DNA from: a phage
Strand: one strand, 5' to 3'
Assembly (NCBI GenBank): GCA_027262695.1
Contig: GCA_027262695.1_4722.1
Length of the DNA stretch: 64,000 nucleotides
Part shown: positions 2,563-58,346 of the stretch, piece after piece
Position numbering within the stretch: position 1 is the stretch's first letter
How the letters are laid out: every line of letters starts with the position of its first letter
Made by a program: the position numbers and the translations under genes
The notes under the pieces: model-generated
Seen by the model: the letters and a program-made list of their open reading frames with translations, nothing else
Database searches by the model: none
Told to the model about the DNA's origin: nothing

Positions 2563-3060
2563 CTACGCTGAGACCGCCTGCATGGATACGTACATGACAG
2601 GCTGCTTGCACTTTCATGCAAGAGGAGACTATATCAAACCGGCAGCTTCACCTTCTCGATCGTATCGAGAATGCGGTGCTGAAGTATTCTTCAGCAGCAC
2701 CTGCTACGGTAACCTACACTTCGAAGACGCTTGTCCTCTACAGGGTGGTAAATCCCTTAGTCGTTGAACCTGCGTTGTTTCCCATTCTTGGTTGCAAGAA
2801 TGCCGTATTACTACGCAACAACCAGGCTGCTGATTGCCCATTGTCTCGCACCTTAGCACCGCTTACGCGGCTTTTCTTTCAGCCTAAGCCTCTTACGGAG
2901 GTAGTGCATCTCAACTGTTGTTTCTGCCTTTCGGCACCCCATGGGTCGTTGAGCTTTAGGGGTTCCCAGCAATTCGTAGGTTTTTCAAGCACTCCCTTTC
3001 GGGAATACCGGACAACTTCCCTTGAAAAAAGTCTTTATTTTTCAAGGACTTATCCCCGCC
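2563..3060 (-). ncRNA. candidate group I self-splicing intron (boundaries approximate)
   Basis: Minus-strand core elements in canonical order: P AATTGCTGGGAA (2974-2963), Q AATCAGCAGCC (2835-2825), R GTTCAACGACTAAGGG (2769-2754), S GATATAGTCTCC (2635-2624); R GACTA pairs with S TAGTC (P7). No ORF >60 aa on this strand across ~600 bp between two long same-frame ORFs. Confidence 0.6.
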
Positions 3061-15851: not shown

Positions 15852-15875
15852 CCTCCATGACTGTTATCATGGAGG
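15852..15875. promoter_or_regulatory. inverted repeat CCTCCATGA-n6-TCATGGAGG in divergent promoter region
   Basis: Perfect 9-bp arms between minus gene start (15783) and plus gene start (15918); followed by GGTAATATAG. Confidence 0.35.
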
Positions 15876-15917
15876 TAATATAGTCCTGATATTTTTTTCA
15901 ATACGGAGAATAGAATA

Positions 15918-22259: not shown

Positions 22260-23786
22260 TTACTCCAACACATAACGTGGGTTACTGTATATGTTAGCCC
22301 ATATCCCCACATCGTTACCTGATTCAATAATCACAGCAAAACGAAACGCAATATCAGACTCACGATAGGTTACTGCATACGCTTTCGTTTCGGGCGATGC
22401 TAAATAGCTCAAGTTCAGACGTTGAGGCAGGTCTAACCCCAAGGACATGGTACATGACGTAACACCTTGTTTATCAGGGTTCAGTCTGTAGTTCATGTCC
22501 ACTTTTAGGCTTTTCGTCACCTGCGTAATCGCACTATGCACTTTGGTAACCGTTTTGCCTTTCTTATCCTTTTCTGTTTCGAAAAGAACGTCGGTAATTT
22601 CGGTTACGACCAGACGCGGTGTGGATTCACGGTTATTGTCCAGCCATTCATCCAGTAACGTCTTCAAGAAGTTCAAGGAATCAATCGCACGCCAAGCAAG
22701 GTTCGGCGGATTACATGCTTCCATGAGAATCGCGGTGTTCGATCCACCCAACGGAAGATGCACGCTCTTACCGAGGCCCGTTGGACGCATGGTAAGATCG
22801 CACTCGCCCTCAAGAATATCGCGATGGTATTGACGATGATGAAGGTTATCGATGTATGCAATATACACTGATTCCGTTGTCCCATGCTCTAATACCCGAG
22901 ATGCATGCATACGCATAATCTCGACAGCATCATCTGGTTTGCTTAGATAGACAACGCTATACGCACTATCGCTGATTCTTTTCCCTAATTCAAGACGTCC
23001 TTTATTATCTTTATCGGTGTTACCACCGAAGTAGATATAGCGACCATCTTTCGCACGTTCTTGCTGCTGGTTGGTGGTGAAGTAACAGCGCGAGAACGTA
23101 AAGAACGGGCTTATTTCCGGCTCGGGGTTCCAATAACCTTTCGCTGGAAGCTCTCGGCGTATTTGGGTTCGTACAGCCCAGTCCTGGTTTTGTGACAGAT
23201 ACGTTCCACGCGTCGCCAGCATATCGGCACGCTCGTTACCGATATTGCCCTCGTGTCCAGGAACGTATCGCAGCGAAATATCGATAGCGTCGCGCTTTGC
23301 ATCCCTGATTGCACTATCGAGTTTTCGCCACCGTTCAGCATTCAACAACGGTTTATTATCGGATTTCACCCAGTTGTTTTCTCGCCAGTTAGCAAGATGG
23401 TTGGTGGTACCTACAACAACATATTGGCTATCCGACAATAGCTGAATCCGTTTTGCCCCCTTCGCTTTTCCAAGTTCAATCGCACGAATCGCTGCGTCCA
23501 ACTCCGCCTGATTGTTCGTCACGTTGAAACCTAACGCTTCTAACTCATCCACGTACTCTTTGGGTTCGACCAGCACAGCGTCTTTAGGAAAGTCGAGTTT
23601 AGGATCGACGTAACCGTATTGCGTCGGTTTGGGCTTTCCACTTTTTGAAGGTTCCAAGGTGCCTTTCACTTCTTTCATCAAATCGTAGGTGTAGCCATGT
23701 ACACCATAGCCACCGTACCCACTTGACGTTGGACGGGATCCCCCGTCACAATAGAAAACGGCACCAAGCTCGTTATTTCCTGCCAT
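22260..23786 (-). CDS. RNase H1-like domain fused to ~320-aa C-terminal domain of unknown function
   Basis: ORF track 22260..23798; start moved to ATG 23786 (MAGNNE, GAGG upstream). RNase H motifs: YCDGG, TNNQAELDAAIRA, SDSQYVV, GNERADMLA. Confidence 0.7.
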   Translation of the reverse strand: MAGNNELGAVFYCDGGSRPTSSGYGGYGVHGYTYDLMKEVKGTLEPSKSGKPKPTQYGYVDPKLDFPKDAVLVEPKEYVDELEALGFNVTNNQAELDAAIRAIELGKAKGAKRIQLLSDSQYVVVGTTNHLANWRENNWVKSDNKPLLNAERWRKLDSAIRDAKRDAIDISLRYVPGHEGNIGNERADMLATRGTYLSQNQDWAVRTQIRRELPAKGYWNPEPEISPFFTFSRCYFTTNQQQERAKDGRYIYFGGNTDKDNKGRLELGKRISDSAYSVVYLSKPDDAVEIMRMHASRVLEHGTTESVYIAYIDNLHHRQYHRDILEGECDLTMRPTGLGKSVHLPLGGSNTAILMEACNPPNLAWRAIDSLNFLKTLLDEWLDNNRESTPRLVVTEITDVLFETEKDKKGKTVTKVHSAITQVTKSLKVDMNYRLNPDKQGVTSCTMSLGLDLPQRLNLSYLASPETKAYAVTYRESDIAFRFAVIIESGNDVGIWANIYSNPRYVLE

Positions 23787-23836
23787 TGTAAACCTCATTA
23801 ATCATTGTCCGTATGATAGCCCAAAGTTGTACGGTA

Positions 23837-24388
23837 TTACCGATTCTGTTCTGTTGATGTCGATTGATTGCGATTGACCTTCATTGACCTTAATTTTCCT
23901 CCGTTAATCACGCATTGATCGCGTTGTTCGACAGTAGTGAGGCTATTGCAGACGTAGTAAGTATCAATGAAACGATCCACGCGTTCTTGAAACTTCCTTT
24001 CATCAGCTTGTTCTCGTTCGTAAGTTCGTAACGCACGATCAACTTCACCCTGCAGGATCCGGTTCTGTTCAACCATACTGTCGATTAAACGGCCTCTTAC
24101 TTCGTTCGATGTGTAGAGTTGACGAATCAGTTCTCGGTTGGTATCACGCGCATAACGCAATGTTGCATTCTCCTGACGTAAGCTATTAACATCAGCCATC
24201 AGGGTAATGATTTTTTCGCCAGCAAATAACGTCACGATACCCAATACGATGAAAAAACCCGTAATCAAGAATATCGAGGACTGCCGAGCTCCATCTCGAC
24301 GAGAACGTGCAGGCGGTCGCTTACTTCGCCGAAACAGCTCGCGAAGAAAAGGGAAAAGCCAGGGCAACGCCTTGAGTGTAGTAAACAT
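23837..24388 (-). CDS. membrane-anchored coiled-coil protein (single TM, Rz/i-spanin-like topology)
   Basis: ORF track 23837..24532; start moved to ATG 24388 (AAGGA upstream). Basic N-terminus, TM SSIFLITGFFIVLGIVTLFAG, then heptad-rich region. Confidence 0.4.
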   Translation of the reverse strand: MFTTLKALPWLFPFLRELFRRSKRPPARSRRDGARQSSIFLITGFFIVLGIVTLFAGEKIITLMADVNSLRQENATLRYARDTNRELIRQLYTSNEVRGRLIDSMVEQNRILQGEVDRALRTYEREQADERKFQERVDRFIDTYYVCNSLTTVEQRDQCVINGGKLRSMKVNRNQSTSTEQNR

Positions 24389-24442
24389 GCGTGTGTCCTT
24401 GATAGTATGAAATTTCCAATACAACTTAACCGAGGACGTCGA

Positions 24443-25783
24443 ATGATTAATATTTTTGGTTTTTATACGTACAAAGGGTACGCTAATAACCACCCAAAAA
24501 CCACGGCGAAATTCGGTGAGTTCAGTCAGCACAGTGCTACGTTCAGTCGCGAGATCGGCATCTATACCAACACGGCGTACGCACGTACGACCTTATTAGT
24601 GTTGAATGCAGAAAACGAAGCTGGTGAGGCACAAACGCTGGATGACGACACCGCAGGCCGCATTCTTCAGGTTGGTCAATGGTTGCTGGAAAAAGCCTCA
24701 TCGGGCGAAATCCAGGAAGACAGAGACCAAGTTATCAGCTACCTAAAAGACGACTTCACAACGTATCTTGATTCTATCGACATCCCAACACCCACCACCG
24801 ATGGGAAAGTCTATCTACCGGCGTGGATCAGTTTCAAGATAACAGCCACCGGCGATGTTGTCAAGATTTGGTTGTCTGATAGCGTATTCCAAAGTCAATA
24901 TCCAAAATACGAATATGAAGTCGTTCCTCCTGTTCCTAAGGATCAGTTAGATACCTTCTTCGAAGATCTGGCAACATTGAAGAAACTGGTTGACAGTCGA
25001 AGCAGCGAGAAACTGACCGAAGAAATCAACGAGGTGCGCGACCAATTCCCAGACACACAATTGTGGACGAAAACCTATAAAGCGTACGATTACACCGACG
25101 ATTCGAAATACATTAATACCGATTGGACGGTGATCATCTACGGTGCGGCAGGTAACAACATTGATAATATCAAGGAGTTCCTGCAAAACTGGGTTCTTAG
25201 CAACAGCACGCACGGACGTCCAGACTGGGAAATCGTTCTGCCGGATCTTTTTATTCCGACGGAACACATCTTCATCCCAATCTGGAACCGCCACAGCGCC
25301 CCGGAAATGACCAATCAGGCACGTATCTATAGTCCTATCTTCGATGATTCGTTGATGGATACCTACCTGAAAAACTTTGCTGATGGTTACGGTGAAACCA
25401 CCGAAGTCCGTAAATCGCTTCAAGCTGTGCCGACGTTGTGGCGCTCGATCGGTTTCTTAAGCGTTGGTAACTCACGTAACCGTGACGGTAAGCTTAAGTT
25501 CTACGATCGCTGGCCGCAATACGCACTTATCAGCACAACCAGTATCGACATTAACCGTATCGACGATGCGACACGTGAATTCATCACCTTCACTTACGAA
25601 ATGCTGAAACTGGCAGAATCGCTCACCGAAGACGATCCAGTACCGTTGGGCTATAGTCGTGTTACGCGTGGCAGCAATAGCTTCTTAGCGAAAAGCCACA
25701 ACGATGTTCAGTATCTCTTCTTAACAAAAGAAGCGTTCCTGAAGAAAATGCCGGATGAAGCCGACACACCTGTTGGAGGTTGA
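24443..25783 (+). CDS. hypothetical protein
   Basis: ORF track 24407..25783; start moved to ATG 24443 (GAGGA 6 nt upstream). Confidence 0.55.
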   Translation: MINIFGFYTYKGYANNHPKTTAKFGEFSQHSATFSREIGIYTNTAYARTTLLVLNAENEAGEAQTLDDDTAGRILQVGQWLLEKASSGEIQEDRDQVISYLKDDFTTYLDSIDIPTPTTDGKVYLPAWISFKITATGDVVKIWLSDSVFQSQYPKYEYEVVPPVPKDQLDTFFEDLATLKKLVDSRSSEKLTEEINEVRDQFPDTQLWTKTYKAYDYTDDSKYINTDWTVIIYGAAGNNIDNIKEFLQNWVLSNSTHGRPDWEIVLPDLFIPTEHIFIPIWNRHSAPEMTNQARIYSPIFDDSLMDTYLKNFADGYGETTEVRKSLQAVPTLWRSIGFLSVGNSRNRDGKLKFYDRWPQYALISTTSIDINRIDDATREFITFTYEMLKLAESLTEDDPVPLGYSRVTRGSNSFLAKSHNDVQYLFLTKEAFLKKMPDEADTPVGG

Positions 25784-25785
25784 TT

Positions 25786-26412
25786 ATGGCTGTAACACGC
25801 ATGACGCCAAGTCCCGGTGCGGTCGGGGTATTCACAGTATCAGCGCCGTTCTCCGTTGGTGCATCGACGTTATATACCGTTACAGCGTTGCGAAGATTCA
25901 GCGAAGTCATCGGTAGTGGAATCGATCTATTTACGGAACTATACGAACCGTTATCGATAGACAAATCCACTTTCGAAGCGCATCTTGAAGCAAATGCTTA
26001 TCTCGTCACGTTACAGCCGGATTATGGTGCGCCAGTACTGGTACCAGATACGTATATCACGTCGTACCCAAAGAACGATTCCTTACGGTATCGCCGCATT
26101 ATTCTGGGTATTGATTTCGGGCCTCTTCCTCCCGGTCTTGACCTTTCGTATTTAACAACGATATTGAAAGGTAAAGCCAGTGATATTCTTGGTGTCGAAC
26201 CTGAAGTTAAAACGATGGAAATCACTCTCGATGATACCGTTACTCAGGAACAACATCAGATAAACGAAGCCCGTCGTCAGGCTGCGATAAAAGAGCGAGA
26301 TACCATTTACGCACGCTGTGAAACACAAGAGAAGCAGATAACGGCTTTACTTGCAACCCAAAAGCAACTTATCAAATTGCTTCAAGACGCCGGAATCAAT
26401 CCGACACCTTAA
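25786..26412 (+). CDS. hypothetical protein with C-terminal coiled coil
   Basis: ATG 25786 with GGAGG 6 nt upstream, 3 nt after stop of previous gene. Confidence 0.55.
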   Translation: MAVTRMTPSPGAVGVFTVSAPFSVGASTLYTVTALRRFSEVIGSGIDLFTELYEPLSIDKSTFEAHLEANAYLVTLQPDYGAPVLVPDTYITSYPKNDSLRYRRIILGIDFGPLPPGLDLSYLTTILKGKASDILGVEPEVKTMEITLDDTVTQEQHQINEARRQAAIKERDTIYARCETQEKQITALLATQKQLIKLLQDAGINPTP

Positions 26413-26418
26413 CATATT

Positions 26419-26450
26419 CCCTCCTCCAACCCGTAAGGGAAGGAGGAGGG
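26419..26450. terminator. hairpin CCCTCCTCC-AACCCGTAAGGGAA-GGAGGAGGG followed by TATGCCGT and A12
   Basis: Same hairpin family as 13571; motif at 26452-26459. Confidence 0.6.
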
Positions 26451-26521
26451 CTATGCCGTAAAGCAAAAAAAAAAAATGATAGTCACGAGCCCTCCAATGA
26501 AGGAGAGCCGTGACCGTCAGT

Positions 26522-27223
26522 TTAGGATGCGGATAATCTAGCGTACTTTTGTCGAATATGGTTCTTACGGCGAACTTCGTCATCCTCGTCGCGCCATTCG
26601 AGGTAAGCTACGAATCGCCGTAACTGCGCTGCAGTCATTGTTGCTGACAGATCTTCTATTTCTAAAACAACATAGTGAACTTCGCCGACACCATCGCAGT
26701 CAGTATAACGGAATACCAAAAGATCCTTATCATATTCCGTGATAATAACCTTGAATCGTTTCTCGAACAAATAAAACAGTTCCGATTCGATAATCATCGG
26801 GATAACACAATTATCGTCACGTTCAATGATTTTCATCATCACACGTAACGCACGAAGCGCGTGATGGGCGAACGAACCATTAAATCGTTGATTCATTGCT
26901 TGTCCCACATCAACGATCTTTGTTCCTGGCCAGGGACGGATTACTGATTTCGGTGGTGTAAGACGGCAGCGGTACGCTTGTATAAACAACAGAATATCGG
27001 CGACATTAGGAAATTCTTCCTGGTCTTTGTACAGCTTACGGATAATATCCGGGATCGTAGTCAACAAATATTTCCTATCGCCTCCTACTTTCTCGAGATT
27101 AGCGATATGCCCTTCTACCACTGGCTGGTAAACGAAATTATACCAGTGGTGGTATTTTGCAACGTGTTGGTATTTCGGGATGAAATTAAGAACAGCGTTC
27201 ACTGCGCGTTTTAATGGGTTCAT
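26522..27223 (-). CDS. hypothetical protein
   Basis: 233-aa ORF. Confidence 0.55.
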   Translation of the reverse strand: MNPLKRAVNAVLNFIPKYQHVAKYHHWYNFVYQPVVEGHIANLEKVGGDRKYLLTTIPDIIRKLYKDQEEFPNVADILLFIQAYRCRLTPPKSVIRPWPGTKIVDVGQAMNQRFNGSFAHHALRALRVMMKIIERDDNCVIPMIIESELFYLFEKRFKVIITEYDKDLLVFRYTDCDGVGEVHYVVLEIEDLSATMTAAQLRRFVAYLEWRDEDDEVRRKNHIRQKYARLSAS

Positions 27224-27237
27224 CAGAAGAATCCTTC

Positions 27238-27672
27238 TTATGTTTTAATATGCACATCGTCAATCCCCTCGGTAATCCAGCCGATGGGAAGGACAATCGT
27301 TGTTATCGTGTTATGGGTGTAAGGATTAAGAAAATGGAAATAGTAATTTGTGTTAGATTGTTCGATGCGTAGGTCGAGCTGTGCGTCTTCAGGTAACCGT
27401 AACCAGGCACCGTACAGTTCATTAAACTTACGCTGAATTTTACCTGGGTTCATTGGAACCCCACGACCACGTTGATGTAGCTGACGTAATGATTCAATCA
27501 AACACTCAGAGATACCCGTTGTCGTTCCGTTATCGCTTGTATCGACAACGATGAACTCTCGTGACCCACGACCAAGATAAAAACCAGCAACAAAAGCTGC
27601 AGCAACAAAAAATATCGTACCGATACCAATATACCAATAGTAAGTATCCATAACGGCCTCACTTATACCCAA
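27238..27672 (-). CDS. small membrane protein (N-terminal TM)
   Basis: TM YYWYIGIGTIFFVAAAFVAGFYLG near N-terminus. Confidence 0.5.
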   Translation of the reverse strand: MGISEAVMDTYYWYIGIGTIFFVAAAFVAGFYLGRGSREFIVVDTSDNGTTTGISECLIESLRQLHQRGRGVPMNPGKIQRKFNELYGAWLRLPEDAQLDLRIEQSNTNYYFHFLNPYTHNTITTIVLPIGWITEGIDDVHIKT

Positions 27673-28238
27673 TAGTCGGCAAGCGGTTTCACCTTATTAA
27701 CGGGTAATTGTACTTTACCGATATTCTCTACATCTGCATCCGCGTAGAGAACAATTTTATCATTGTCTCTTTCCCAACGAATAATAAATCGACCAGGAAG
27801 AAGATTACCCTGTTCAAGAGACGCAGTAACCTGCTGCGTTAACACCGACAACCAAGCAGGCATCAGTGTTGCAATATCTAAGTCATTTGACCATTCAGCA
27901 CGTTGCTCCACAGGGCGTAACATCCGTTGGATGGTGCGTTGAACCGTCGCAGTGATATAGCCTTTATCTTCATCACTGATCGGATCCGGACGAGACACAA
28001 AACGTTCAGTAGGCTTGTGGGTAATATGTTCATGCAATTCGATGAGTGGTGTTGTCATAGTACTCGCTCCGTCAGAATGTAATTGGGTAACCCGCAGGGT
28101 TGTCTGCATGGTATTCAGAAGCGCAAAAGCGCCATAAACAACAACGACACTAAGTACAACCAAAACAGAAATCATTAACGTATATTGCATTGATATCTCC
28201 TCTTCATACGCATCTTGAAGATTAGTTAAAATCAACAA
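27663..28238 (-). CDS. small membrane protein (N-terminal TM)
   Basis: TM LMISVLVVLSVVVVYGAFALL near N-terminus; GAGGAGAT upstream. Confidence 0.5.
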   Translation of the reverse strand: MLILTNLQDAYEEEISMQYTLMISVLVVLSVVVVYGAFALLNTMQTTLRVTQLHSDGASTMTTPLIELHEHITHKPTERFVSRPDPISDEDKGYITATVQRTIQRMLRPVEQRAEWSNDLDIATLMPAWLSVLTQQVTASLEQGNLLPGRFIIRWERDNDKIVLYADADVENIGKVQLPVNKVKPLADYWV

Positions 28239-28258
28239 AAGAAAAAACGATATAAAGC

Positions 28259-28284
28259 AAGGTCCTCTGATATCAGAGGACCTT
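28259..28284 (-). terminator. intrinsic terminator: 26-bp perfect palindrome followed by T-rich run on minus strand
   Basis: AAGGTCCTCTGA-TA-TCAGAGGACCTT, then TTTATATCGTTTTTTCTTTTG on the transcribed strand. Confidence 0.65.
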
Positions 28285-28291
28285 GGATCAA

Positions 28292-28948
28292 TTAGCTTGC
28301 AGCTTCTTCATTTGTTTCAGGTTTGCTTCCCCCTAACAAACCGTCGAACAGACCCGTATGTTTCAGGTAGAAGAGAGCGATAGCGCCCATTGCTGCTGCG
28401 CTCGTCGCCGTTAATGCAACCCCTGCACGATACTGCCATTTACGGTCAGGCTTTTGATCAAGCGCCATACGACGCATGTATTCAGCCTCTGCTTCATTCC
28501 GATGAATTTCGGATTCGGCCAAGCGGGCTAAGGTATCGCGGTCAAGGTTATCATAACGTGCGTTCATGGTGGTTTCCTCTTGTTTGGAAGTTGATTGCTT
28601 GGTAGATTCTTGGTCAACAGTCGTTTCGGTTGGTTCAAACGGCTGGTTGTTCATTTTCTGATCTTTATTGGACATGATAGGCTCCTTCGATTTTTGAGAC
28701 GAAATTGATTTAAACCATCGTGGATGGCGGTATTCGGTTTTACATGTGCAGTTAAGTTTCTCGTGCAGGAAAGCGTAAAAACGTTTTGCGCCTACACGTA
28801 AGGCTTTCAGCATTACCCATCCACGAGCACTCAAACGGTGTAGCTGTTGCGGTATGTCGAGTTTCCTAGCCAAGCGAAAGTATCTTTCAATCACTTCGAT
28901 AGGAAACCATTGTTGTTCCACATCGGTGAGACTGAAAGTCTTATCCAT
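28292..28948 (-). CDS. hypothetical protein with C-terminal TM segment
   Basis: 218-aa ORF; hydrophobic GVALTATSAAAMGAIALFYL near C-terminus. Confidence 0.5.
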   Translation of the reverse strand: MDKTFSLTDVEQQWFPIEVIERYFRLARKLDIPQQLHRLSARGWVMLKALRVGAKRFYAFLHEKLNCTCKTEYRHPRWFKSISSQKSKEPIMSNKDQKMNNQPFEPTETTVDQESTKQSTSKQEETTMNARYDNLDRDTLARLAESEIHRNEAEAEYMRRMALDQKPDRKWQYRAGVALTATSAAAMGAIALFYLKHTGLFDGLLGGSKPETNEEAAS

Positions 28949-28979
28949 GATTGAAATCTCGCTGGCTTACTTCACTTAA

Positions 28980-28996
28980 GTAATATAGCCGTGAAA
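28980..28996 (+). promoter_or_regulatory. conserved 17-mer GTAATATAGCCGTGAAA (candidate promoter element)
   Basis: Identical 17-mer recurs at 43715-43731; the 9-nt core GTAATATAG recurs at 15875-15883. Confidence 0.35.
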
Positions 28997-29098
28997 AATG
29001 TTGGATTAAGTTAAATACCGCAACCGCAGCTAATTTTATAGGCTTTTAGCCTAAACCAATCATCTTCGGAATCATCATCTTTGAAACAGGAATCTATC

Positions 29099-29920
29099 AT
29101 GGAAAAAGTATTTGTTTGTAAGTTGTTTACCAACGGCAATAGCCAACCAATGTATCTGACCGATCCTGTTCTAGGTAATCGGAACAGTACCGTATTCAAA
29201 GAGGCTTTCGAATACGCTAAAAATAAAGCCGTGAGAACACTGACGTCTGATGACTGTATCGACGGTATCACGTGGGCAGAGTTAATCGGTGATGCCGTTC
29301 GACACTTCGTTCGGGATGCGAGAAAACGGGAAATCTGTCTCACGACTATTGTTGTGCGTGAAAACGCAGAAATTTTATCAAACGTTTTGGTTGATTTTAA
29401 TGACGTTTGCGTGTTTAATCCAGAGAACACGTTTGAACAATACCTTACTGCCCTGAACAACCAGCTCGGTAAAGATATTCATCCCGAATTCGCCAAGTTA
29501 ACGTATCAAGTGCTTTTTAACGACGTCGATCCAAACACAAAGATCAACACCAGCTTATCGCCCCTGGTAAAGAAATACGGATCGGTTCTTGCTACGGCAA
29601 CACCCACCACCGATGGCGGTTATGATATCGAATTGGATGGTCCATTAAAAGAACAAGAACCTACTGGGATTCGGGCGGTACATCACAACCTCGTCGTTAA
29701 ATCTGATGGATGCGATGAACATTACGCTATGATAAACGATGAAAACAATTACCGTTTAAGTCAAGCGATTGGTGTTCTACGCTATACCGAACCCACTGTT
29801 GTAGACGATTATACATCGACAACAACACACACCACGTGTTTCATTTTCATCTATCCCAATGAAAGTGTATACATTACCGACTGCTATGGCAATACCGTAG
29901 ATAGCTTACGTCGTTATTAA
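29099..29920 (+). CDS. hypothetical protein
   Basis: ORF track 29081..29920 (TTG); ATG 29099 preferred. Confidence 0.5.
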   Translation: MEKVFVCKLFTNGNSQPMYLTDPVLGNRNSTVFKEAFEYAKNKAVRTLTSDDCIDGITWAELIGDAVRHFVRDARKREICLTTIVVRENAEILSNVLVDFNDVCVFNPENTFEQYLTALNNQLGKDIHPEFAKLTYQVLFNDVDPNTKINTSLSPLVKKYGSVLATATPTTDGGYDIELDGPLKEQEPTGIRAVHHNLVVKSDGCDEHYAMINDENNYRLSQAIGVLRYTEPTVVDDYTSTTTHTTCFIFIYPNESVYITDCYGNTVDSLRRY

Positions 29921-29926
29921 TCATCA

Positions 29927-29948
29927 AGCCTGTCCTTCGGGGCAGGCT
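29927..29948 (+). terminator. hairpin AGCCTGTCC-ttcg-GGGCAGGCT followed by TTTTATGCCGTTAAA
   Basis: Stem-loop 6 nt after stop of 29099..29920; T-run then TATGCCGT motif. Confidence 0.6.
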
Positions 29949-30022
29949 TTTATGCCGTTAAATAACTGGAATAAGAATTAACAAAATAGGAAAATGGTGT
30001 GAATATAACACAAAGGAGGGAG

Positions 30023-37699: not shown

Positions 37700-38089
37700 T
37701 TAACGGATTGCGTTTTGGATGATTTCTTTTCCGATCGTAATCAAAGCAGGTATCTGTACTGCGGTTGCGCCTTGATGACGAAACGCGGTCGTTAATGCGG
37801 TATCGATGCTCACAGCACGTCCGTGAAGACGATCGAAATAGACTTGAGTGATAGCAGCGGCATACTCTTTTCGCTGTTTCTTGGTTTGGTTTACCATCGT
37901 CGCACTACTACCGACGATGAAATAAGCGATTAAGAAGAATGCGGCTGACCGTGAGCCGGGTAGAAAGCCTTGGCGTTTAGGAAGCATTTCACAATCACGA
38001 ACAGTAATACTGTTCGTGAGCTTTTCCATGTCGACATGGCATAATTTTGCATAGGTGTGAAGATGATGGGTAAAAGTTGAATTTAACAT
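37700..38089 (-). CDS. small membrane protein
   Basis: Central TM AAFFLIAYFIVGSSATMV; GAGGAAAG upstream. Confidence 0.5.
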   Translation of the reverse strand: MLNSTFTHHLHTYAKLCHVDMEKLTNSITVRDCEMLPKRQGFLPGSRSAAFFLIAYFIVGSSATMVNQTKKQRKEYAAAITQVYFDRLHGRAVSIDTALTTAFRHQGATAVQIPALITIGKEIIQNAIR

Positions 38090-40467: not shown

Positions 40468-40743
40468 TTATACGTCTTTTCTGTGCGCGTAGAACGCCTT
40501 CGTTCCGTTGTTGATCGCCTCAACCACATCCGGGGTTAACACAACGGCGATATCGCTTCGAGATGACGGTGCGTAATACCCTTCACCGTTCTCGGTAATC
40601 AGGCGATAACGGACTAAGCCTATGTTCGGTTCAACGCGTACCACTCTTTCGAGTTTGTACTTGATGATCTTCGTCAGGCCGATAGTCTCTGATGCGTAGA
40701 TGGCTTTATAAACTTTGTTCTTTGCTGTCGTTTTCATCAACAT
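40468..40743 (-). CDS. small hypothetical protein interleaved in paralog cluster
   Basis: ORF track 40468..40812; internal ATG 40743 chosen to limit overlap with paralog 1 (still 38 nt). Confidence 0.4.
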   Translation of the reverse strand: MLMKTTAKNKVYKAIYASETIGLTKIIKYKLERVVRVEPNIGLVRYRLITENGEGYYAPSSRSDIAVVLTPDVVEAINNGTKAFYAHRKDV

Positions 40744-41599
40744 GGTTTCTGTTTTCCTTGGTTTGTTGTGGTCCCAGGTCGGAGATATCCCAACGGATAT
40801 AACCAACATCACGGATTCGCTCGGCTGTTTCTTCGGATTGTGGATTACGACTGATAACCGGTAGCCATTCCCCTTCTCGGGTTATCTTAACTTCGGTGAT
40901 CTGTAAGCTCATGTTCCAACGAACGTCATAAACCAGCGCGTAACCAAGAGGATGAACAAGCCCATCTTGGTTATACATCTTCAAAAGACCTCTTACATCT
41001 TCGCTACGAAGTGATTTCATGGCTGGACGTACGCGTTGAAGTCTCTTTGTGATATCGTATCCCAACTTAATATCCTTCCAACCCGTCATGACGTAAGGAA
41101 CAACGTTGCGGCGACGGAGTTGATGGTTGTGAGTGGTTTCTTCGGCGGTAAGATGTACCCAACCGAGATCGCTGTACGCCACGAACCGCGCTCCTTCTCC
41201 ATCGAGCACTGTGTGCTCATCTAACGCTGCTGCAACACCATGGCCTGCGTAATACGACGGAAGAACGTTCAGCATTTTAATACGGCTTTCTTGACCGGTA
41301 TGGTCAGGGTCGATATGCGCGTAGTAATAATTACGGCTTACCGGACGACCTTCCGCCATACATCCACGGAAGACAGGGTCCTGCATTCCAAGCGGATGGT
41401 AATACGCGAGCTGTTGCTCGTCACCTTCCCCGATGACCAACAAACGATCTTCACGACTTGGTGTGCTAGGATCTTTCACCGTGATGTAGGTAACAATCAC
41501 TTTCAGATTGTCTAAAATGTCCTGTGGAAGTTTCTCTAAATCCCGTGCGTCGTAAATACGATTAACAACAACGTTTGCAATGTGTTTTGGTAAGCTCAT
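40706..41599 (-). CDS. member 1 of triplicated ~270-aa paralog family (unknown function)
   Basis: Shared motifs LAYYHPLGMQ, SDLGWVHL, HPLGYALVYDVRWN, GYIRWDISDL; unique C-terminal extension. Confidence 0.6.
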   Translation of the reverse strand: MSLPKHIANVVVNRIYDARDLEKLPQDILDNLKVIVTYITVKDPSTPSREDRLLVIGEGDEQQLAYYHPLGMQDPVFRGCMAEGRPVSRNYYYAHIDPDHTGQESRIKMLNVLPSYYAGHGVAAALDEHTVLDGEGARFVAYSDLGWVHLTAEETTHNHQLRRRNVVPYVMTGWKDIKLGYDITKRLQRVRPAMKSLRSEDVRGLLKMYNQDGLVHPLGYALVYDVRWNMSLQITEVKITREGEWLPVISRNPQSEETAERIRDVGYIRWDISDLGPQQTKENRNHVDENDSKEQSL

Positions 41600-41644
41600 T
41601 TTAGATCTCTCTTTGTTATCGGTAAAATAAATAACGGCATAAAT

Positions 41645-41660
41645 GGGACATAACTGTCCC
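41645..41660 (-). terminator. hairpin GGGACA-taac-TGTCCC followed on minus strand by TTTATGCCGTTATTTATTTT
   Basis: Between paralog 2 stop and paralog 1 start; motif at 41633-41642. Confidence 0.45.
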
Positions 41661-41679
41661 CGTGTTAAATATCAACTGT

Positions 41680-42522
41680 TCACGCTTTCAAGTCTGAAAT
41701 ATCCCAACGTACGTAACCTGTACGCTCAATGTCGTCAACCAGTCGCTCGGTTTGATTTTCAACGCCAACGACGGGCACCCAATTTAAACGCCAGCGTCCA
41801 CCGACATTAACCTCAACACGCTGCAGATCTTCATTCCAACAAACCCCATTCGGTCTCAAAAAGCCCATCGGATGGATGTAGTCCTCATCGTAATCTTTCA
41901 ATAGCGCGAGAATATCGCTTCGGCTATAAGTCTTCACGCTTGCTAGATGTACGCTTTGTAGCTTATCACGCAGACCCCAACCGTACTCACTATCACGCCA
42001 TTCAGGCATGACAACCGGCAGTACATTCCGATGACGGATGTATTTTGCCGCTTCAGCAATATCAGCTGGGAGATGTATCCAACCTAAATCGCTGTTAGCG
42101 ACAAAATCAGGACTATCCATTTCATGGATGTAACGATCGTAAAGCGTAGCAGCGAGTCCTTCAGCAAGCACGTTTGTTGGAAGGAGGCAGTTGGCGCTTA
42201 TCTTGAAATCGAATACATCGGCATCAGGATCCACGTATGCGTAAAACCCGCGCGCAAAAGCACCGCCATGCTCTTTGAAGTAGTATTGGAACACAGCGTT
42301 TTGCATTCCGATGGGGTGGTAGTAAGCCAACACACGTTGTTCGCCGTCCGTGATTTCAATGAGCCGATCTTTCGGCTTCGGCCAGGTGATCTTCTCAACA
42401 TCGCAAACGCTGACGATCTTTCGTAGATTCACCTTGATATGTTCCGGGAGATGCCCGATTTCATTTTCATGATAAACACGGGTGATGACGTGATGAATAA
42501 CAGATTGTGGTTTAGCTGTCAT
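41680..42522 (-). CDS. member 2 of triplicated paralog family
   Basis: LAYYHPIGMQ, SDLGWIHL, HPMGFLRPNGVCWN, GYVRWDISDL. Confidence 0.6.
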   Translation of the reverse strand: MTAKPQSVIHHVITRVYHENEIGHLPEHIKVNLRKIVSVCDVEKITWPKPKDRLIEITDGEQRVLAYYHPIGMQNAVFQYYFKEHGGAFARGFYAYVDPDADVFDFKISANCLLPTNVLAEGLAATLYDRYIHEMDSPDFVANSDLGWIHLPADIAEAAKYIRHRNVLPVVMPEWRDSEYGWGLRDKLQSVHLASVKTYSRSDILALLKDYDEDYIHPMGFLRPNGVCWNEDLQRVEVNVGGRWRLNWVPVVGVENQTERLVDDIERTGYVRWDISDLKA

Positions 42523-42554
42523 TTGACGTCTCCTTTTCGTTTGTTGGTGATGGT

Positions 42555-42854
42555 TTAGGGTTTAGGTTCCGTTTTGTATTGTGCGAGTAATGCGTTGATC
42601 TGCTCCCGTTGTTCTTTTAAGCATGTGGGAAGCTGGTCTTCCCGTACCGTTCCGATTTCCAACGTGATGTACCAACGTTGTTCGGAAGCCTGCCATTGAA
42701 AACTGCTCTGTAACCGAAGGATGTTGGGATCGCGTACCTTGCTTGCGCTGTAGCGATCGAACCAATCCAGATAAGCGGCTTTTCCTTCCTCGTCGGCAAC
42801 GTAACGCTGCACGCTGTTCTTGCCTTTGTTCTCGTATCCCGTGATGCGGATCAT
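42555..42854 (-). CDS. small hypothetical protein interleaved in paralog cluster
   Basis: ORF track 42555..42908; ATG 42854 overlaps stop of paralog 3 in ATGA arrangement. Confidence 0.45.
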   Translation of the reverse strand: MIRITGYENKGKNSVQRYVADEEGKAAYLDWFDRYSASKVRDPNILRLQSSFQWQASEQRWYITLEIGTVREDQLPTCLKEQREQINALLAQYKTEPKP

Positions 42855-43627
42855 GCGAACGTTTCTCCTGTAACGTGTTGCGGATAGCGTAGCATGGTAA
42901 CATCCCATTGTACGAATCCCTGCTGTTGGAGTTGTTGCATAACCGCTTCAACGTCTTGTCCTGGATGCGCAACCGGCAACCAACGTGTATCCAGCACCTT
43001 CGCTTCAAGGCGGGCTTTGCGCTTGTTCCAACGTACCTCGCTGATCCATGCGAAGCCAAGCGGATGCACCACCTGCGGGTAATGCACGCGCAGCAGGTTC
43101 TTCATCCGGCGAAGGATTGCAAGCCTGGCGTCAAGCGCGTATGGTTTCACCTGGTTAAGCTTGCGGGTGTAATACGTTCCCACGGTTTGGTTCGCCCAAC
43201 CAGGAAGCGCATGATGGGACCCAGCCTGCAATGTATTGTCCCCGTTCGTCTTCAACCAACCGTATTGCCCTGCCGCACGTCCTTTCTCATGTTCAACTTG
43301 TACCAGCTGATCGATGAACGAAGCATCAACGATACCGTGATCCACCTCATCCAACGCATAGCGCACCACCAACCCGCTCGCGCTCATCCGTGCGGGATGC
43401 TGGCTCCGATGCGCGTACCAAACCCTATTAACATGCAGCCGAGAAGGATACGTGTGTGCGCCACGCCAAAACACTTTTCCGAGAACACGTTCTCCACAGT
43501 ACACCATCACCCCTTTGTGATCGATTAGGTAATCCAACACCTTCATGCATTCCGCTTTGATGCTATCCGGTAATGCTAAGTATTCCTCTTCGGTGAACAC
43601 GGTATCAAAAATGATTTCATCGCTCAT
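42851..43627 (-). CDS. member 3 of triplicated paralog family (most divergent)
   Basis: HPLGFAWISEVRWN and GFVQWDVTML align with members 1 and 2. Confidence 0.55.
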   Translation of the reverse strand: MSDEIIFDTVFTEEEYLALPDSIKAECMKVLDYLIDHKGVMVYCGERVLGKVFWRGAHTYPSRLHVNRVWYAHRSQHPARMSASGLVVRYALDEVDHGIVDASFIDQLVQVEHEKGRAAGQYGWLKTNGDNTLQAGSHHALPGWANQTVGTYYTRKLNQVKPYALDARLAILRRMKNLLRVHYPQVVHPLGFAWISEVRWNKRKARLEAKVLDTRWLPVAHPGQDVEAVMQQLQQQGFVQWDVTMLRYPQHVTGETFA

Positions 43628-43639
43628 GGATAAAGTTCC

Positions 43640-44075
43640 TTGTTTTCACGTTGTTTGATTAACGTATTGATTTCTGATGATGATAACATCGATATGTTTG
43701 CTGTTATCAAGAAGGTAATATAGCCGTGAAAGGATTTGTATTACAGAAAGGATATTTGTTTTTAAGAAGGGACGATGGTTATCAGGAAGGAGGTTATCGG
43801 TAGGTGTAGGAGAGGGGATTTCAAGGAAGGTTTAAGAGGATAGTTATGTTGTTTAGTTGAGAGTTTGCTAAAATAGCTTTATCGTTATCTTAGTTTATCT
43901 GTGTATTCGTTAGGTATCTTGATTTATCTTCTTAATGATCTTTTCAAAAGTGTTATCATGGTTATCTTAGGTTATGTCTTAATTGTTTTATCTTGGTATG
44001 TTTAAGTTGTTTTAAGTTATCTGTTTATCTATCTTGTTATCTTGTTTAAGTTGTTAATGGCTTATCTTCAAAACA
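43640..44075. repeat. AT-rich non-coding region with purine-rich (A/G)GAAGG repeats (about 43700-43850) and at least 8 TATCTT iterons (about 43880-44070)
   Basis: No credible ORF; copies such as GTTATCTTAG, GGTATCTTGA, TTTATCTTCT, GGTTATCTTAGG, TTTATCTTGG, GCTTATCTTC; TGTTTAAGTTGTT twice. Confidence 0.6.
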
Positions 44076-46457: not shown

Positions 46458-47093
46458 TTATTCAGCACTGAAACCGTTCAAACGGATAGCTTCGTAACGT
46501 TTACGTTCACGACGTTTACGCGCCTGCCAACCGTAAATGAACTTCTCGTCTTTCTCACGACGTTCAGCTAATTCGATGTAATACATGCTCTGCATATCCA
46601 GCATCGCGTCGATAAGGTAATCTTTACCTTGCTCGCCACGTTTTGCGATATAAGCGTCCAACGCACCTAAGGTTTTAGGTCCCATCCCACCATCAGCGTC
46701 AATATCTTTCCAGTAAGTTTGACGGTTGTTCATGACGTTGAGGTAACGCTGGAGGTTCTTAACGGCAACGGATTTGCCTGCATTGATACCCAGATCAAAG
46801 AGACGGTCAGCTAAGAACACGGAACGCTTCATGACGTCATCAAGCTTCATCTTATCCCAGAAGTGGGTTTTGTAGATGAAGAACGCCATGTCGTAGGTCA
46901 GATTGCGCATATTACCATTCCAACCGAATTTCGTTTTCAGCGTGGTTTTGTATTGATCGGCGAGCGCTTTCGTAATTCCCATCATGGTTTCATTACCGCT
47001 GTCATCTGGGTCGTTGACGTATCCCGCCTCGATGTTGGTTTTATCACGAATGATGAATTCGCAGGTAAAATCTTTTTCAGTAATCTTGGTCAT
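46458..47093 (-). CDS. endolysin, GH108-like muramidase with PG_binding_3-like C-terminal domain
   Basis: EAGYVNDPDDSGNETMMGIT matches the GH108 motif (EGGYVNDP.D.GG.T.GIT); DADGGMGPKTLGAL matches the peptidoglycan-binding motif. Confidence 0.8.
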   Translation of the reverse strand: MTKITEKDFTCEFIIRDKTNIEAGYVNDPDDSGNETMMGITKALADQYKTTLKTKFGWNGNMRNLTYDMAFFIYKTHFWDKMKLDDVMKRSVFLADRLFDLGINAGKSVAVKNLQRYLNVMNNRQTYWKDIDADGGMGPKTLGALDAYIAKRGEQGKDYLIDAMLDMQSMYYIELAERREKDEKFIYGWQARKRRERKRYEAIRLNGFSAE

Positions 47094-51891: not shown

Positions 51892-52377
51892 TTAAATAGG
51901 CGAGTCGGGTAGCTGACCATCATCGATCTCGATGGTGGCCACCTTACGTGTTGCAGCAAGATGTGATGTACCCTGGATTTTGTTCCAGGTGCCGATACGC
52001 ATGGCGTTTTTGTAGCTGCTATCGCTATCGTTCAGCGTGTAAACAAAACCGCTATCGGTTACGGCAAGATAGATCCAGCCTACAGACTCACTGATGCCTG
52101 ACACGTCCAAAGTTGCTGCTGGCACCGTCCCTACCACCGTGTTGTATTCCGCTGTACCTTGACCAATGCTGATCCGTCCGTTGCTGTAACTGGCTGCTGG
52201 AAGCGTTTTATTTCGACTGAAGAAAAGAAACGGAAGGTAACGCTGGGTAACAAGCGGTGCAAGTTTAGGAGCCACTTCGGTCTTAACGTAGACATCTGTT
52301 TGTGCTGGCGTTACCTCGTGAGGGTTCTTTTGGGTAAGATACGTCCCCCATTCAGAAAGCAGTGTTGATAGCTTCAT
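51892..52377 (-). CDS. small fibre-associated protein with N-terminal NPH-type motif
   Basis: KNPHEVTPAQTDVY near N-terminus; paralog of 52382..52897. Confidence 0.5.
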   Translation of the reverse strand: MKLSTLLSEWGTYLTQKNPHEVTPAQTDVYVKTEVAPKLAPLVTQRYLPFLFFSRNKTLPAASYSNGRISIGQGTAEYNTVVGTVPAATLDVSGISESVGWIYLAVTDSGFVYTLNDSDSSYKNAMRIGTWNKIQGTSHLAATRKVATIEIDDGQLPDSPI

Positions 52378-52381
52378 GCGG

Positions 52382-52897
52382 TTACCCCATGTAACGTTTT
52401 TGGCCGAGGATGAAGACTTTGTTAAATACCACCGAAGTGATTCCTGTTGCGTTACAGCTCACCTGCCCGACGCGAATTGCTGTTGACGTATCGACCCCAG
52501 CACTACTCTGCCAGATCCAATCGATCGATCCGTCTTTCTGACGAATGAAAAGATAACCGGTTTTGTTCGCCCAGTCGGAAGTAAGTTTTTTGATGTCTAG
52601 CGTTCCCTTCGCCAGAATATAGTCGGTACCGGCGATCATGACGGGTATTTCAGGATACGAGATTACCGTACCGCTGGCAGTAACGTTGCTGATGCGTTCG
52701 CTACGAATATCGGTACAGTCACCGAAATACGCTACGGGGAGTATCCCCTTAGGGAGCTTTTTGCCGATTCTCGTATCGATCGTGTTTTTATCGGGTGCGT
52801 CGATTTGCGCTGCGGTGACTTGGTTAGGGTTATCCTTCCTTGCGTACCATGTCGTCATGCGAGCACCCAATTCACTCATTTTTGTGCCCATTTTCAC
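52382..52897 (-). CDS. small fibre-associated protein with N-terminal NPN-type motif
   Basis: KDNPNQVTAAQIDAP near N-terminus; paralog of 51892..52377. Confidence 0.5.
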   Translation of the reverse strand: MKMGTKMSELGARMTTWYARKDNPNQVTAAQIDAPDKNTIDTRIGKKLPKGILPVAYFGDCTDIRSERISNVTASGTVISYPEIPVMIAGTDYILAKGTLDIKKLTSDWANKTGYLFIRQKDGSIDWIWQSSAGVDTSTAIRVGQVSCNATGITSVVFNKVFILGQKRYMG

Positions 52898-57461: not shown

Positions 57462-58346
57462 TTACGGTAGGATTTCTGCACCGGTTGGACCTGCCTTACG
57501 GGCTTCCAACGCACCAAGGTCGTATTTCAACGTTAACGTATCGTTGGTGGTGTAGAGGTTGTGGTACGTTGAAATCAGGTCGGTAACTTGAGCTCCTACG
57601 ATTTCGTTCATATCGAAGTTGGAACCTTGACCGTCATCAGCACGAACGATTTTATCGCCCGCAGAGACTATTCCAATTTCAGAAATAACCGCGTACTCTT
57701 CACCACCCTCGGTGAGCTTAGCCACATTGCGGTATTCGTTAATATCCCACGGTGTCCAAACCAGAGACACCTTGCAGCTGTAATCGTAATACTCACCTGT
57801 CGCCACTAAAATTCCGGTGGTCGGAATATCCGGTCGTGGCGGGTTGAGGTTCACATCGGTGGGATGCCATTCGATGGTCTGAGCAACACCATCAATGTAT
57901 TTGGTATAACGCATGGAGCGGACAACGTTATCGAAATCGATGCGGCGACCGTAATAACAGATGTACTTTTTACCGCTTTCCAGCGTCTCGATACGCCGTA
58001 ACCCAAATTTAGCACGTTCGTCCGTGGTTAAATCGTTACCCACTTCACGCATTACAAATGGCTTGATCTTCCACGGTGAAAGATTGCTTGCTTCATGGGC
58101 GATCGGCATCGAGGAAGGGATACCGTTCGCATTACGGATGAATTCATGACCCAGGTTACCGATACAGAAGTAACGTACGGCAGGATTACCTTCAGGGTAG
58201 ATCTTCGCTTGGATCTGAAGTTTTTCGTTCAGGGTGCTATGTTCTTCCCACGCGTGAGGAAGTCCCAACGTCAGGTTGGTTTGTACTTGACCACCGATAA
58301 TCGTACGAACGATACGATCGGTAGCACGGATTTGTGTAGAAGCCAT
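57462..58346 (-). CDS. hypothetical structural protein, possible divergent member of the same family
   Basis: YICYYGRRIDF and VSLVWTPW loosely match family motifs. Confidence 0.45.
   Translation of the reverse strand: MASTQIRATDRIVRTIIGGQVQTNLTLGLPHAWEEHSTLNEKLQIQAKIYPEGNPAVRYFCIGNLGHEFIRNANGIPSSMPIAHEASNLSPWKIKPFVMREVGNDLTTDERAKFGLRRIETLESGKKYICYYGRRIDFDNVVRSMRYTKYIDGVAQTIEWHPTDVNLNPPRPDIPTTGILVATGEYYDYSCKVSLVWTPWDINEYRNVAKLTEGGEEYAVISEIGIVSAGDKIVRADDGQGSNFDMNEIVGAQVTDLISTYHNLYTTNDTLTLKYDLGALEARKAGPTGAEILP

Follow-up and report, generated by a model that had tools for sequence, protein, structure and literature searches.

The 64,000-nucleotide stretch of phage DNA analysed here, referred to as the window (GCA_027262695.1, contig GCA_027262695.1_4722.1), encodes at positions 23837 to 28948 a group of small membrane-protein genes that lie far from its endolysin gene. 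A preliminary description had proposed that these genes might supply the holin and the spanin of the phage, with lysis functions dispersed over the genome, or else encode superinfection-exclusion proteins. Megablast of window positions 23000-30000 matched Escherichia phage vB_EcoM_Goslar at 92% identity, and on this match the source appears to be a Goslar-like nucleus-forming jumbo phage (chimallivirus). The complete Goslar genome (MK327938; ~92% nucleotide identity) was used as a proxy for regions beyond the window. Mapping to Goslar placed the flagged genes, all on the minus strand, as the homologues of gp247 (23837-24388), gp2 (27238-27672), gp3 (27663-28238) and gp4 (28292-28948), every one of which is labelled “hypothetical protein” in the Goslar record. 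The gp1 homologue (26522-27223, minus strand) is the last gene of the same-strand run that starts with gp4; its product is a soluble protein of 233 residues. The homologues of gp1 to gp4 and gp247 are real genes and not chance open reading frames (ORFs), because the ratio of nonsynonymous to synonymous substitution rates (dN/dS) against close relatives was 0.07-0.25 for all five, a sign of purifying selection, and because gene order and transmembrane (TM) layout are conserved in a diverged locus, L019, where the proteins are only 25-32% identical.

As the preliminary description had stated, each of the three proteins encoded at 27238-28948 has a single TM segment. TM segments were called from Kyte-Doolittle hydropathy (KD) windows and not with a trained predictor, and topology was read from a heuristic on the flanking charges. 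The gp4 homologue (218 residues; dN/dS 0.09-0.14) consists of a conserved helical N-terminal domain (residues 1-84), a disordered linker, a helix, a C-terminal TM segment at residues 175-195 (KD ~1.7) and an acidic tail of 23 residues. With flank charges of +5 before and +2 after the TM segment, a pattern also present in proteins P0002, P0024 and P0023, it is predicted to be a tail-anchored inner-membrane protein with a cytoplasmic N-terminal domain and a periplasmic tail (N-in/C-out). An AlphaFold2 model built on a five-sequence alignment had an overall predicted local distance difference test score (pLDDT) of 59.5, with values of 70-88 in the N-terminal domain. The gp3 homologue (dN/dS 0.07-0.15; single-sequence AlphaFold2 model with a pLDDT of 58) carries its TM segment near the N-terminus (residues 23-41, KD 2.75), followed by a C-terminal domain of ~143 residues made of two helices and then strands. 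The gp2 homologue (dN/dS 0.08-0.25) also has an N-terminal TM segment (residues 15-33, KD 2.15), followed by a C-terminal domain of ~110 residues with a conserved SECL motif and a ...W..EGIDD motif, and it has no lipobox. The start codons of these two genes are uncertain: gp3 would encode 175 residues from ATG 28190 or 191 from TTG 28238, and gp2 137 residues from ATG 27651 or 144 from TTG 27672, the Goslar record taking the ATG in both cases. In every lineage, a charge count placed gp2 and gp3 as N-out/C-in, no Lys or Arg preceding the TM segment and a charge of +1 to +3 following it; the same positive-inside count misassigns the known i-spanins of phiKZ and Moabite, and we did not trust it for these two proteins.

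The trio was then traced in other phages. L019 is a 101-kilobase (kb) contig of a diverged Goslar-like phage, reached via protein P0014 (a gp247 homologue, 62-64% identical), and it keeps the full gp4-gp3-gp2 order and TM layout. Its gp4 and gp2 homologues are 28% (E 3e-14) and 32% (E 2e-14) identical to those of the window; the gp3 homologue is 25% identical in a global alignment, with equal length, TM position and C-terminal motif. The gp1 gene, which has a dN/dS of ~0.17 against close relatives, is not conserved there, three other soluble genes being found instead. A full HMMER search with the gp4 family against 1.84 billion representatives returned as diverged matches only P0024 and P0023, plus two spurious ones, and the lineages recovered were that of L019 and one more, that of P0023. 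The latter is represented by L075, a metagenome contig of 1.68 kb, on which the gp4 homologue is followed by a gene whose product starts with an N-terminal TM segment. Ahead of the early-type promoter and the gp4 homologue, at L075:70-510, the same contig encodes a protein with a SUKH_5 domain (immunity-protein superfamily). We did not detect the trio in other chimalliviruses, scanning IMG/VR and metagenomes with the gp2 family recovered only close Goslar relatives (88-100% identical), and tblastn of gp4 and gp247 against 50,697 phage records matched only Goslar itself. PHROGs, Pfam and NCBIfam held no informative family for gp1 to gp4 or gp247, a phmmer search of Protein Data Bank (PDB) chains gave no relevant match, and Foldseek searches of the PDB with the poor gp3 and gp4 models (pLDDT 58 and 59.5) gave nothing at E below 2. 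By these comparisons, gp4-gp3-gp2 appears to be a module kept in order and layout in the diverged Goslar-like lineages that were found.

An early-type promoter motif, of the class used by the virion RNA polymerase, stands before gp4. The motif, CATTTTTCACGGCTATATTACTTAAGTGAA (28971-29000, minus strand; 30-nucleotide form TTTCACGGCTATATTACTTAAGTGA), scored 42.9 bits with a position weight matrix (PWM), and its TATATTAC core (28980-28987) lies 32 nucleotides upstream of the gp4 start codon, where the sequence reads ...TTTTTCACGGCTATATTACTTAAGTGAAG. In the literature, TATATTAC is listed as the phiKZ promoter, and the 201phi2-1 consensus is given as TTTRARR_BTATATTACDWHDGTG (...TATATTACDWHDGTG) (PMC7058600); core and flanks of the gp4 motif closely match this consensus. 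According to a review, the early operons of every jumbo phage that encodes its own RNA polymerase are preceded by a conserved motif of this kind, which was an early virion RNA polymerase promoter wherever tested (PMC7598289). Three such sites occur in the window, on the minus strand throughout (15866-15895, 28971-29000 and 43706-43735; PWM starts 15895, 29000 and 43735), each 32-92 nucleotides upstream of a minus-strand start codon. The observed scores were 33-43 bits, and shuffled windows gave 0-1 matches at 14 bits or more. The gp4 homologues of L019 and L075 are likewise preceded by the motif, with scores of 28.8 and 40.9 bits, respectively. Goslar has 12 sites of the extended motif, every one on the minus strand; one precedes gp189, which occupies the chimallin position and which we take to encode chimallin. 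In phiKZ, examined as a control, the extended motif is absent from the lysis cassette and from the gp156.1/156 region, and it is present at further small genes of this phage, gp166 and gp185 among them. A scan for sigma-70 promoters showed no enrichment (13 found versus 16.5 expected), as expected for a phage independent of the host RNA polymerase.

Between gp4 and gp3, at 28258-28285 on the minus strand, we found a 12-bp GC-rich hairpin followed by a U-rich tract (RNAfold, -22.7 kcal/mol), and the Goslar record has a terminator annotated in this position. The element resembles an intrinsic terminator or an attenuator. In L019 the hairpin is missing and the homologues of gp4 and gp3 overlap, which makes their co-transcription likely there; for the window it is uncertain.

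The remaining flagged gene, the gp247 homologue, encodes 183 residues with an N-terminal amphipathic motif (MFTTLKALPWLFPFLRELF), a basic stretch and a TM segment at residues 36-57 (KD 2.54). Flank charges of +7 before and +2 after the TM segment, in the window and in L019 alike, predict an N-in/C-out (type II) protein, and the i-spanin-like topology described earlier is thus borne out, although the coiled-coil nature of the C-terminal region is seen only in weak family matches (ZapB, BRE1, TSC22, DUF6377; E 0.01-0.7). The protein is under strong purifying selection (dN/dS ~0.10). Its C-terminal part contains two Cys residues; this part is poorly conserved even among Goslar-like lineages, where the two Cys are lost.

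To place this gene, its divergent neighbours on the plus strand, the gp248 and gp249 homologues (24407-26412), were used as synteny anchors. The gp248 homologue (24407-25783; PHROG 3293 at 1.9e-128), which encodes a virion structural protein like phiKZ gp157, has conserved counterparts in 285 phage records, and the gp249 homologue (25780-26412; PHROG 3241) is a DUF7194 gene (Pfam, 3e-67). The gp247 slot lies on the opposite strand, between the gp157-like gene and an RNase H-like gene, the homologue of gp246 by Goslar mapping and counterpart of phiKZ gp155 (22260-23798, minus strand; PHROG 3265 at 1.7e-103). Moabite, Proteus phage 10, Special G, phiKZ and IMG/VR loci also carry a short gene on the minus strand at this position, and its product is built like gp247, with an amphipathic N-terminal motif, a basic stretch, a TM segment and a coiled-coil-like region. 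In phiKZ the slot gene is gp156.1 (96 residues). A hidden Markov model (HMM) of the Goslar family matched Moabite gp259 at 8.7e-5. Iteration from gp156.1 gathered 24 members and reached the Goslar type at a borderline E of 0.002-0.016, with a similarly borderline E of 0.0013 in the reverse direction (~870-protein database in both cases). Profile comparison of the gp247 and gp156.1 families with hhalign gave a probability of 90.7% and an E of 1.3e-6 over 22 N-terminal columns only. Slot, architecture and profiles together point to 23837-24388 being the Goslar-lineage member of a chimallivirus-wide phiKZ gp156.1 family. Besides the slot, the basic stretch, the single TM segment and a coiled-coil-like region, gp247 shares with gp156.1 the N-terminal motif “LKAL..PFL+E.F”; it differs in being about twice as long (183 versus 96 residues), with a lineage-specific C-terminal domain.

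The two also differ in what follows them. In phiKZ, the gene after gp156.1 is gp156, a clear lipoprotein gene (MSRKFFLILLPLISG directly before CVYT), whereas in the window no lipoprotein gene follows and the RNase H-like gene comes next. We read the slot in 36 IMG/VR loci fetched around the DUF7194 gene, and in many lineages the TM/coiled-coil protein gene is immediately followed by a lipoprotein gene. The gp156 lipoprotein family had 11 members at E 1e-27 or better, phiKZ gp156 and those of 10 of the 36 loci, and more were found by lipobox; its members share a conserved C-terminal “YI..L...I..ER....C” motif. The phiKZ pair is located at L016:5185-5897, and pairs of this type also lie just upstream of the gp157-like gene in L024, L033, L036, L038, L040, L041, L050, L055 and L056. 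The lipoprotein is absent at the slot in Goslar-like phages, Moabite/2050HW, Special G-like phages, Proteus phage 10 and several IMG/VR loci. We propose that the partner gene was lost in several lineages, apparently including all identifiable enterobacterial-phage ones and that of the window. Members of single-gene lineages have 135-183 residues, against 96-129 for paired members of the phiKZ/Noxifer type, some other paired members having 141-194. We considered whether the lost lipoprotein survives in fused form as the C-terminus of gp247 and rejected this, the hhalign probability against the lipoprotein family being 0.5%.

The resemblance of this family to two-component spanins (lambda Rz/Rz1, phiKZ gp141/gp141.1, Moabite gp274/gp273) lies in the type II topology of gp247, its helical, coiled-coil-like predicted periplasmic domain, its C-terminal cysteines and, in the wider gp156.1 family, the adjacent lipoprotein gene, arranged as in i- and o-spanins. 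In contrast, gp247 has no sequence similarity to phiKZ gp141 or to the Moabite i-spanin, has a conserved cytoplasmic N-tail of 35 residues that sets it apart from Rz, and lacks an o-spanin in the window. The gp156.1 family is probably not “the” spanin, because it coexists with a proven spanin in phiKZ and with an annotated one in Moabite. The proposed identification of 23837-24388 as a spanin fared in two ways: its family is indeed followed by a lipoprotein gene in many chimalliviruses, but it occurs beside proven or annotated spanins and its partner is absent here. The gp156.1/gp156 pair would be an additional spanin-like module, distinct from the proven phiKZ spanin gp141/gp141.1. The supplementary table of a phiKZ transposon-sequencing preprint shows zero insertions in orf154-157, including 156 and 156.1, with essentiality not separable from polarity. 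In the searchable literature, we found no paper mentioning gp156 together with phiKZ, and none on the gp156.1/gp156 pair.

The endolysin gene itself is the gp24 homologue (46458-47093, minus strand), 17.5 kb from the gp4 homologue. It encodes a presumed endolysin, a soluble muramidase with Glyco_hydro_108 (6.5e-19) and PG_binding_3 (1.8e-18) domains, both above the curated Pfam cut-offs, which matches the PHROG 315 endolysin; against the NCBIfam holin-associated muramidase model it scored 67 bits, below the cut-off of 240. Its N-terminus is hydrophilic, with no signal or signal-arrest-release segment, and the enzyme should therefore need a holin. The gene is embedded in a block of tail-fibre and structural genes. 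A hydropathy scan of the non-overlapping ORF set of the whole window found no TM ORF at ~44.5-59 kb, and the small neighbours are soluble, so that the endolysin does stand apart from membrane-protein genes, as first reported. Among the large tail-fibre genes, two small proteins (51892-52377 and 52382-52897, minus strand) share an N-terminal “R/KxDNP..VT.AQ” motif that is repeated in neighbouring fibre proteins. These were considered as membrane proteins and rejected, as they are soluble, have no TM segment and carry tail-fibre N-terminal motifs; the label “similar to putative membrane protein” that Goslar gives to one of the two is not borne out.

In phiKZ, a true lysis cassette has been shown experimentally, with gp141 as i-spanin, gp141.1 as o-spanin, gp142 as class IIIB holin, gp143 as cytoplasmic regulator and gp144 as endolysin (Manohar et al. 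2026, PMC12894885), and Moabite has an annotated embedded i/o-spanin pair beside RuvC and Tmk (PMC6639629). A canonical cassette beside a different lysin, which the preliminary description had named as grounds for rejecting its proposal, was sought across the whole Goslar genome, and none combining holin, endolysin and spanin was found. Neither the window nor Goslar gave a tblastn match to phiKZ gp141, gp141.1, gp143 or gp144, or a match to the Moabite spanins; among phiKZ gp139-144, the sole significant match to the window was that of gp139 to 57462-58346. Strict and relaxed lipobox scans of the whole window, with the three frames read inside and after 23837-24388, found no lipoprotein gene, in agreement with the earlier statement that no o-spanin partner is evident. 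The only credible lipoprotein in the Goslar genome is gp88 (Goslar 97923-98426, beyond the window), which adjoins a tail-fibre assembly gene, and a second wall hydrolase, the SleB-like gp98 (Goslar 110508-111005, also beyond the window), has a signal peptide. The lysis genes of Goslar-like phages thus appear not to be clustered as in phiKZ. The proposal of dispersed lysis functions holds to the extent that Goslar has no clustered cassette, but it is not supported in taking the flagged genes as the lysis genes. Among the homologues of phiKZ lysis proteins in other phages, 201phi2-1 gp226-gp228 (L069; homologues of the i-spanin, the holin and the lysis regulator) are annotated as virion proteins by mass spectrometry, which is odd for lysis proteins.

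The reading we favour, and to which we give about an even chance, is that the flagged region combines an early-promoter membrane operon with a partner-less spanin-like gene, neither of them likely to be the missing holin or spanin. The operon (27238-29000) would consist of the promoter, gp4, the hairpin, gp3, gp2 and then the soluble gp1, and the trio would be three bitopic inner-membrane proteins restricted to Goslar-like chimalliviruses, gp4 being tail-anchored and gp3 and gp2 having N-terminal TM segments. The virion RNA polymerase may transcribe gp4-gp3-gp2 from the injected genome, and the three proteins would then insert into the host inner membrane within the first minutes of infection, where they would most likely block or modify a secondary infection (superinfection exclusion) or condition the membrane at the early-vesicle stage. 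Superinfection exclusion or early membrane conditioning is our preferred guess for the trio. An early inner-membrane role is favoured over late lysis because the early-type motif stands before gp4 and also before the gene at the chimallin position, and superinfection exclusion seems to fit this timing evidence better than late lysis does. T4 makes its superinfection-exclusion proteins Imm and Sp early, and the trio resembles these as small bitopic inner-membrane proteins. For its part, gp247 would be an N-in/C-out inner-membrane protein with a periplasmic coiled coil whose ancestral adjacent lipoprotein partner, of the gp156 family, was lost; a gp156.1-type protein and a gp156-type lipoprotein would together form a spanin-like, envelope-facing pair.

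Several observations weigh against this reading. With a soluble endolysin, a large-hole holin must exist somewhere in the genome, and the membrane cluster lies ~1.7 kb from the Tmk/RuvC module, beside which phiKZ and Moabite keep their lysis genes. No spanin was identifiable in the Goslar genome, and a partner-less gp247 could still act in outer-membrane disruption. The trio showed no homology to any known superinfection-exclusion protein. The motif class is the sole basis for the suggested early timing of gp4-gp3-gp2, the hairpin at 28258-28285 could stop transcription before gp3 and gp2, and the N-out/C-in charge count is an unreliable guide to the topology of gp2 and gp3.

If lysis were nevertheless dispersed, gp4 would be a class IIIB holin releasing the GH108 endolysin, gp3 and gp2 membrane regulators (antiholin, lysis inhibition) and gp247 the inner-membrane spanin. 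We regard this as unlikely, although several observations would fit it. Phage phiKZ shows behaviour resembling lysis inhibition, and its holin gp142 has one TM domain, N-in/C-out, with a large cytoplasmic domain and a short periplasmic tail (PMC12894885). The predicted layout of gp4 equals that of gp142, with its large cytoplasmic N-terminal domain, single TM domain and short periplasmic C-tail. The gp3 and gp2 proteins are like the T4 T/RI holin-antiholin pair in size and N-terminal TM segment, in layout only, as neither had a sequence match to any PDB chain, T and RI included. The endolysin without export signal or membrane neighbours, the proximity of the cluster to the Tmk/RuvC module that flanks the lysis genes of phiKZ and Moabite, and the lack of a canonical cassette elsewhere in Goslar would also fit. 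Against this, the early-type promoter stands before gp4 in three lineages and none stands before the phiKZ cassette. The cytoplasmic part of gp4 is about twice as long as that of gp142 and includes a disordered linker, and gp4 is not beside an endolysin, a spanin or a gp143-like regulator. BLASTP of gp4 against phiKZ gp142 gave an E of 1.5, and an hhalign comparison between the gp4 family and a gp142 family from five phages, based on shallow alignments, gave a probability of 4.5%; with this and the promoter, the earlier suggestion that the trio contains the holin is not supported. A word-indexed search of 5.8 billion proteins with phiKZ gp142 retrieved only gp142 itself. Finally, genes of the gp247 family coexist with separate spanins in phiKZ and Moabite, and gp247 has no o-spanin partner.

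It is gp85, not gp4, that is homologous to the tmk-adjacent membrane protein abutting the Moabite spanins. Moabite gp275, with a soluble N-terminal domain of ~100 residues and two TM segments, directly follows tmk, and its homologues in PhiEaH1, PCH45 and the KpLz group are found in the same place, directly after tmk where tmk is annotated. Its Goslar homologue, gp85, lies beyond the window (93878-94447 in MK327938). Like gp4, members of this family have a soluble N-terminal domain followed by C-terminal TM segments; unlike gp4, they have two TM segments and a conserved “I(S/N)(R/K)ERRD(L/I)(M/L)S(V/A)(I/V/F)(V/L/F)GD” tail, and gp85 is encoded ~94 kb into the Goslar genome. The hhalign probability was 0.8% between the gp4 and gp85 families and 4% between the gp85 and gp142 families, whose relatedness is not demonstrated; the one link is a resemblance at the N-terminus (“MTLxELLS”) between the KpLz and 201phi2-1 proteins. 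The gp85 protein is the likeliest candidate for a holin homologue in Goslar, a lead and not an assignment, and its family is a candidate holin family of chimalliviruses that infect enterobacteria.

Two further alternatives appear improbable to about the same degree. According to the first, gp156.1/gp156 would be an ancestral, possibly essential envelope module serving a step other than that of a spanin, for example the sensing or exclusion of superinfecting phages, genome entry and early-vesicle biology, or the regulation of lysis timing; it would have become partner-less in several lineages, including the Goslar-like ones, where the chimallin-class early gp4-gp3-gp2 operon would act with gp247 at the membrane in the first minutes. 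According to the second, the trio would act on the cytoplasmic face of the membrane, all bulk domains being cytoplasmic, and would anchor or organise early infection structures or target host membrane-associated proteins. The charge count (N-out/C-in for gp2 and gp3, N-in/C-out for gp4) and the early-type promoter would agree with such a role; the count is weak evidence, as it misassigns the phiKZ and Moabite i-spanins, and no homology or confident fold was found for any cytoplasmic activity. Least probable of all is that gp247, through a lengthened C-terminal domain contacting the outer membrane, is a partner-less outer-membrane disruptor and the spanin equivalent of Goslar-like phages: the greater length of single-gene than of phiKZ/Noxifer-type paired proteins (some other paired ones being as long), the strong purifying selection and a Goslar genome with no recognisable i/o-spanin pair, its one lipoprotein lying beside a tail-fibre assembly gene, speak for it, but Moabite has a distinct embedded spanin pair in addition to the single-gene form, conservation of the C-terminal part is poor, with its two Cys lost in Goslar-like lineages, this part has no similarity to the lipoprotein family, and gp247 has no C-terminal membrane-active or lipid-anchor feature.

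Other features of the window were recorded along the way. The ends of the linear Goslar GenBank record fall in the convergent intergenic region at window ~26413-26521, and this is why the gene neighbourhood described here is split in the reference record. Window position ~26442 corresponds to Goslar position 17, the window being contiguous through the arbitrary record start, and this read-through would fit a genome that is circularly permuted or terminally redundant. A group I catalytic intron was detected at 2605-3037 on the minus strand (Rfam RF00028, 58.4 bits, E 3e-12), and the Goslar record has an Intron_gpI feature in the same RNA-polymerase-subunit gene region. The Goslar gp14 homologue (37700-38089, minus strand; 129 residues) has one central TM segment (residues 48-69) that is basic on both sides; it is a further membrane protein without an assigned role and is absent from the preliminary description. 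At 40706-43627 on the minus strand, three tandem paralogous genes (297, 280 and 258 residues) with shared motifs lie behind the early-type promoter at 43735, and these may represent a lineage-specific early gene expansion.

Among nucleus-forming jumbo phages, lysis has very recently been elucidated in phiKZ, but not at all in the E. coli model phage Goslar. Our analysis suggests that the phiKZ cassette is not portable to Goslar-like phages, in which the endolysin gene is isolated, no o-spanin is recognisable and the membrane candidates look early. It also points to a second widely conserved spanin-like gene pair, gp156.1/gp156, across chimalliviruses. If the gp4-gp3-gp2 trio does exclude superinfecting phages or condition the membrane, it would bear on the poorly understood membrane-vesicle stage of infection.

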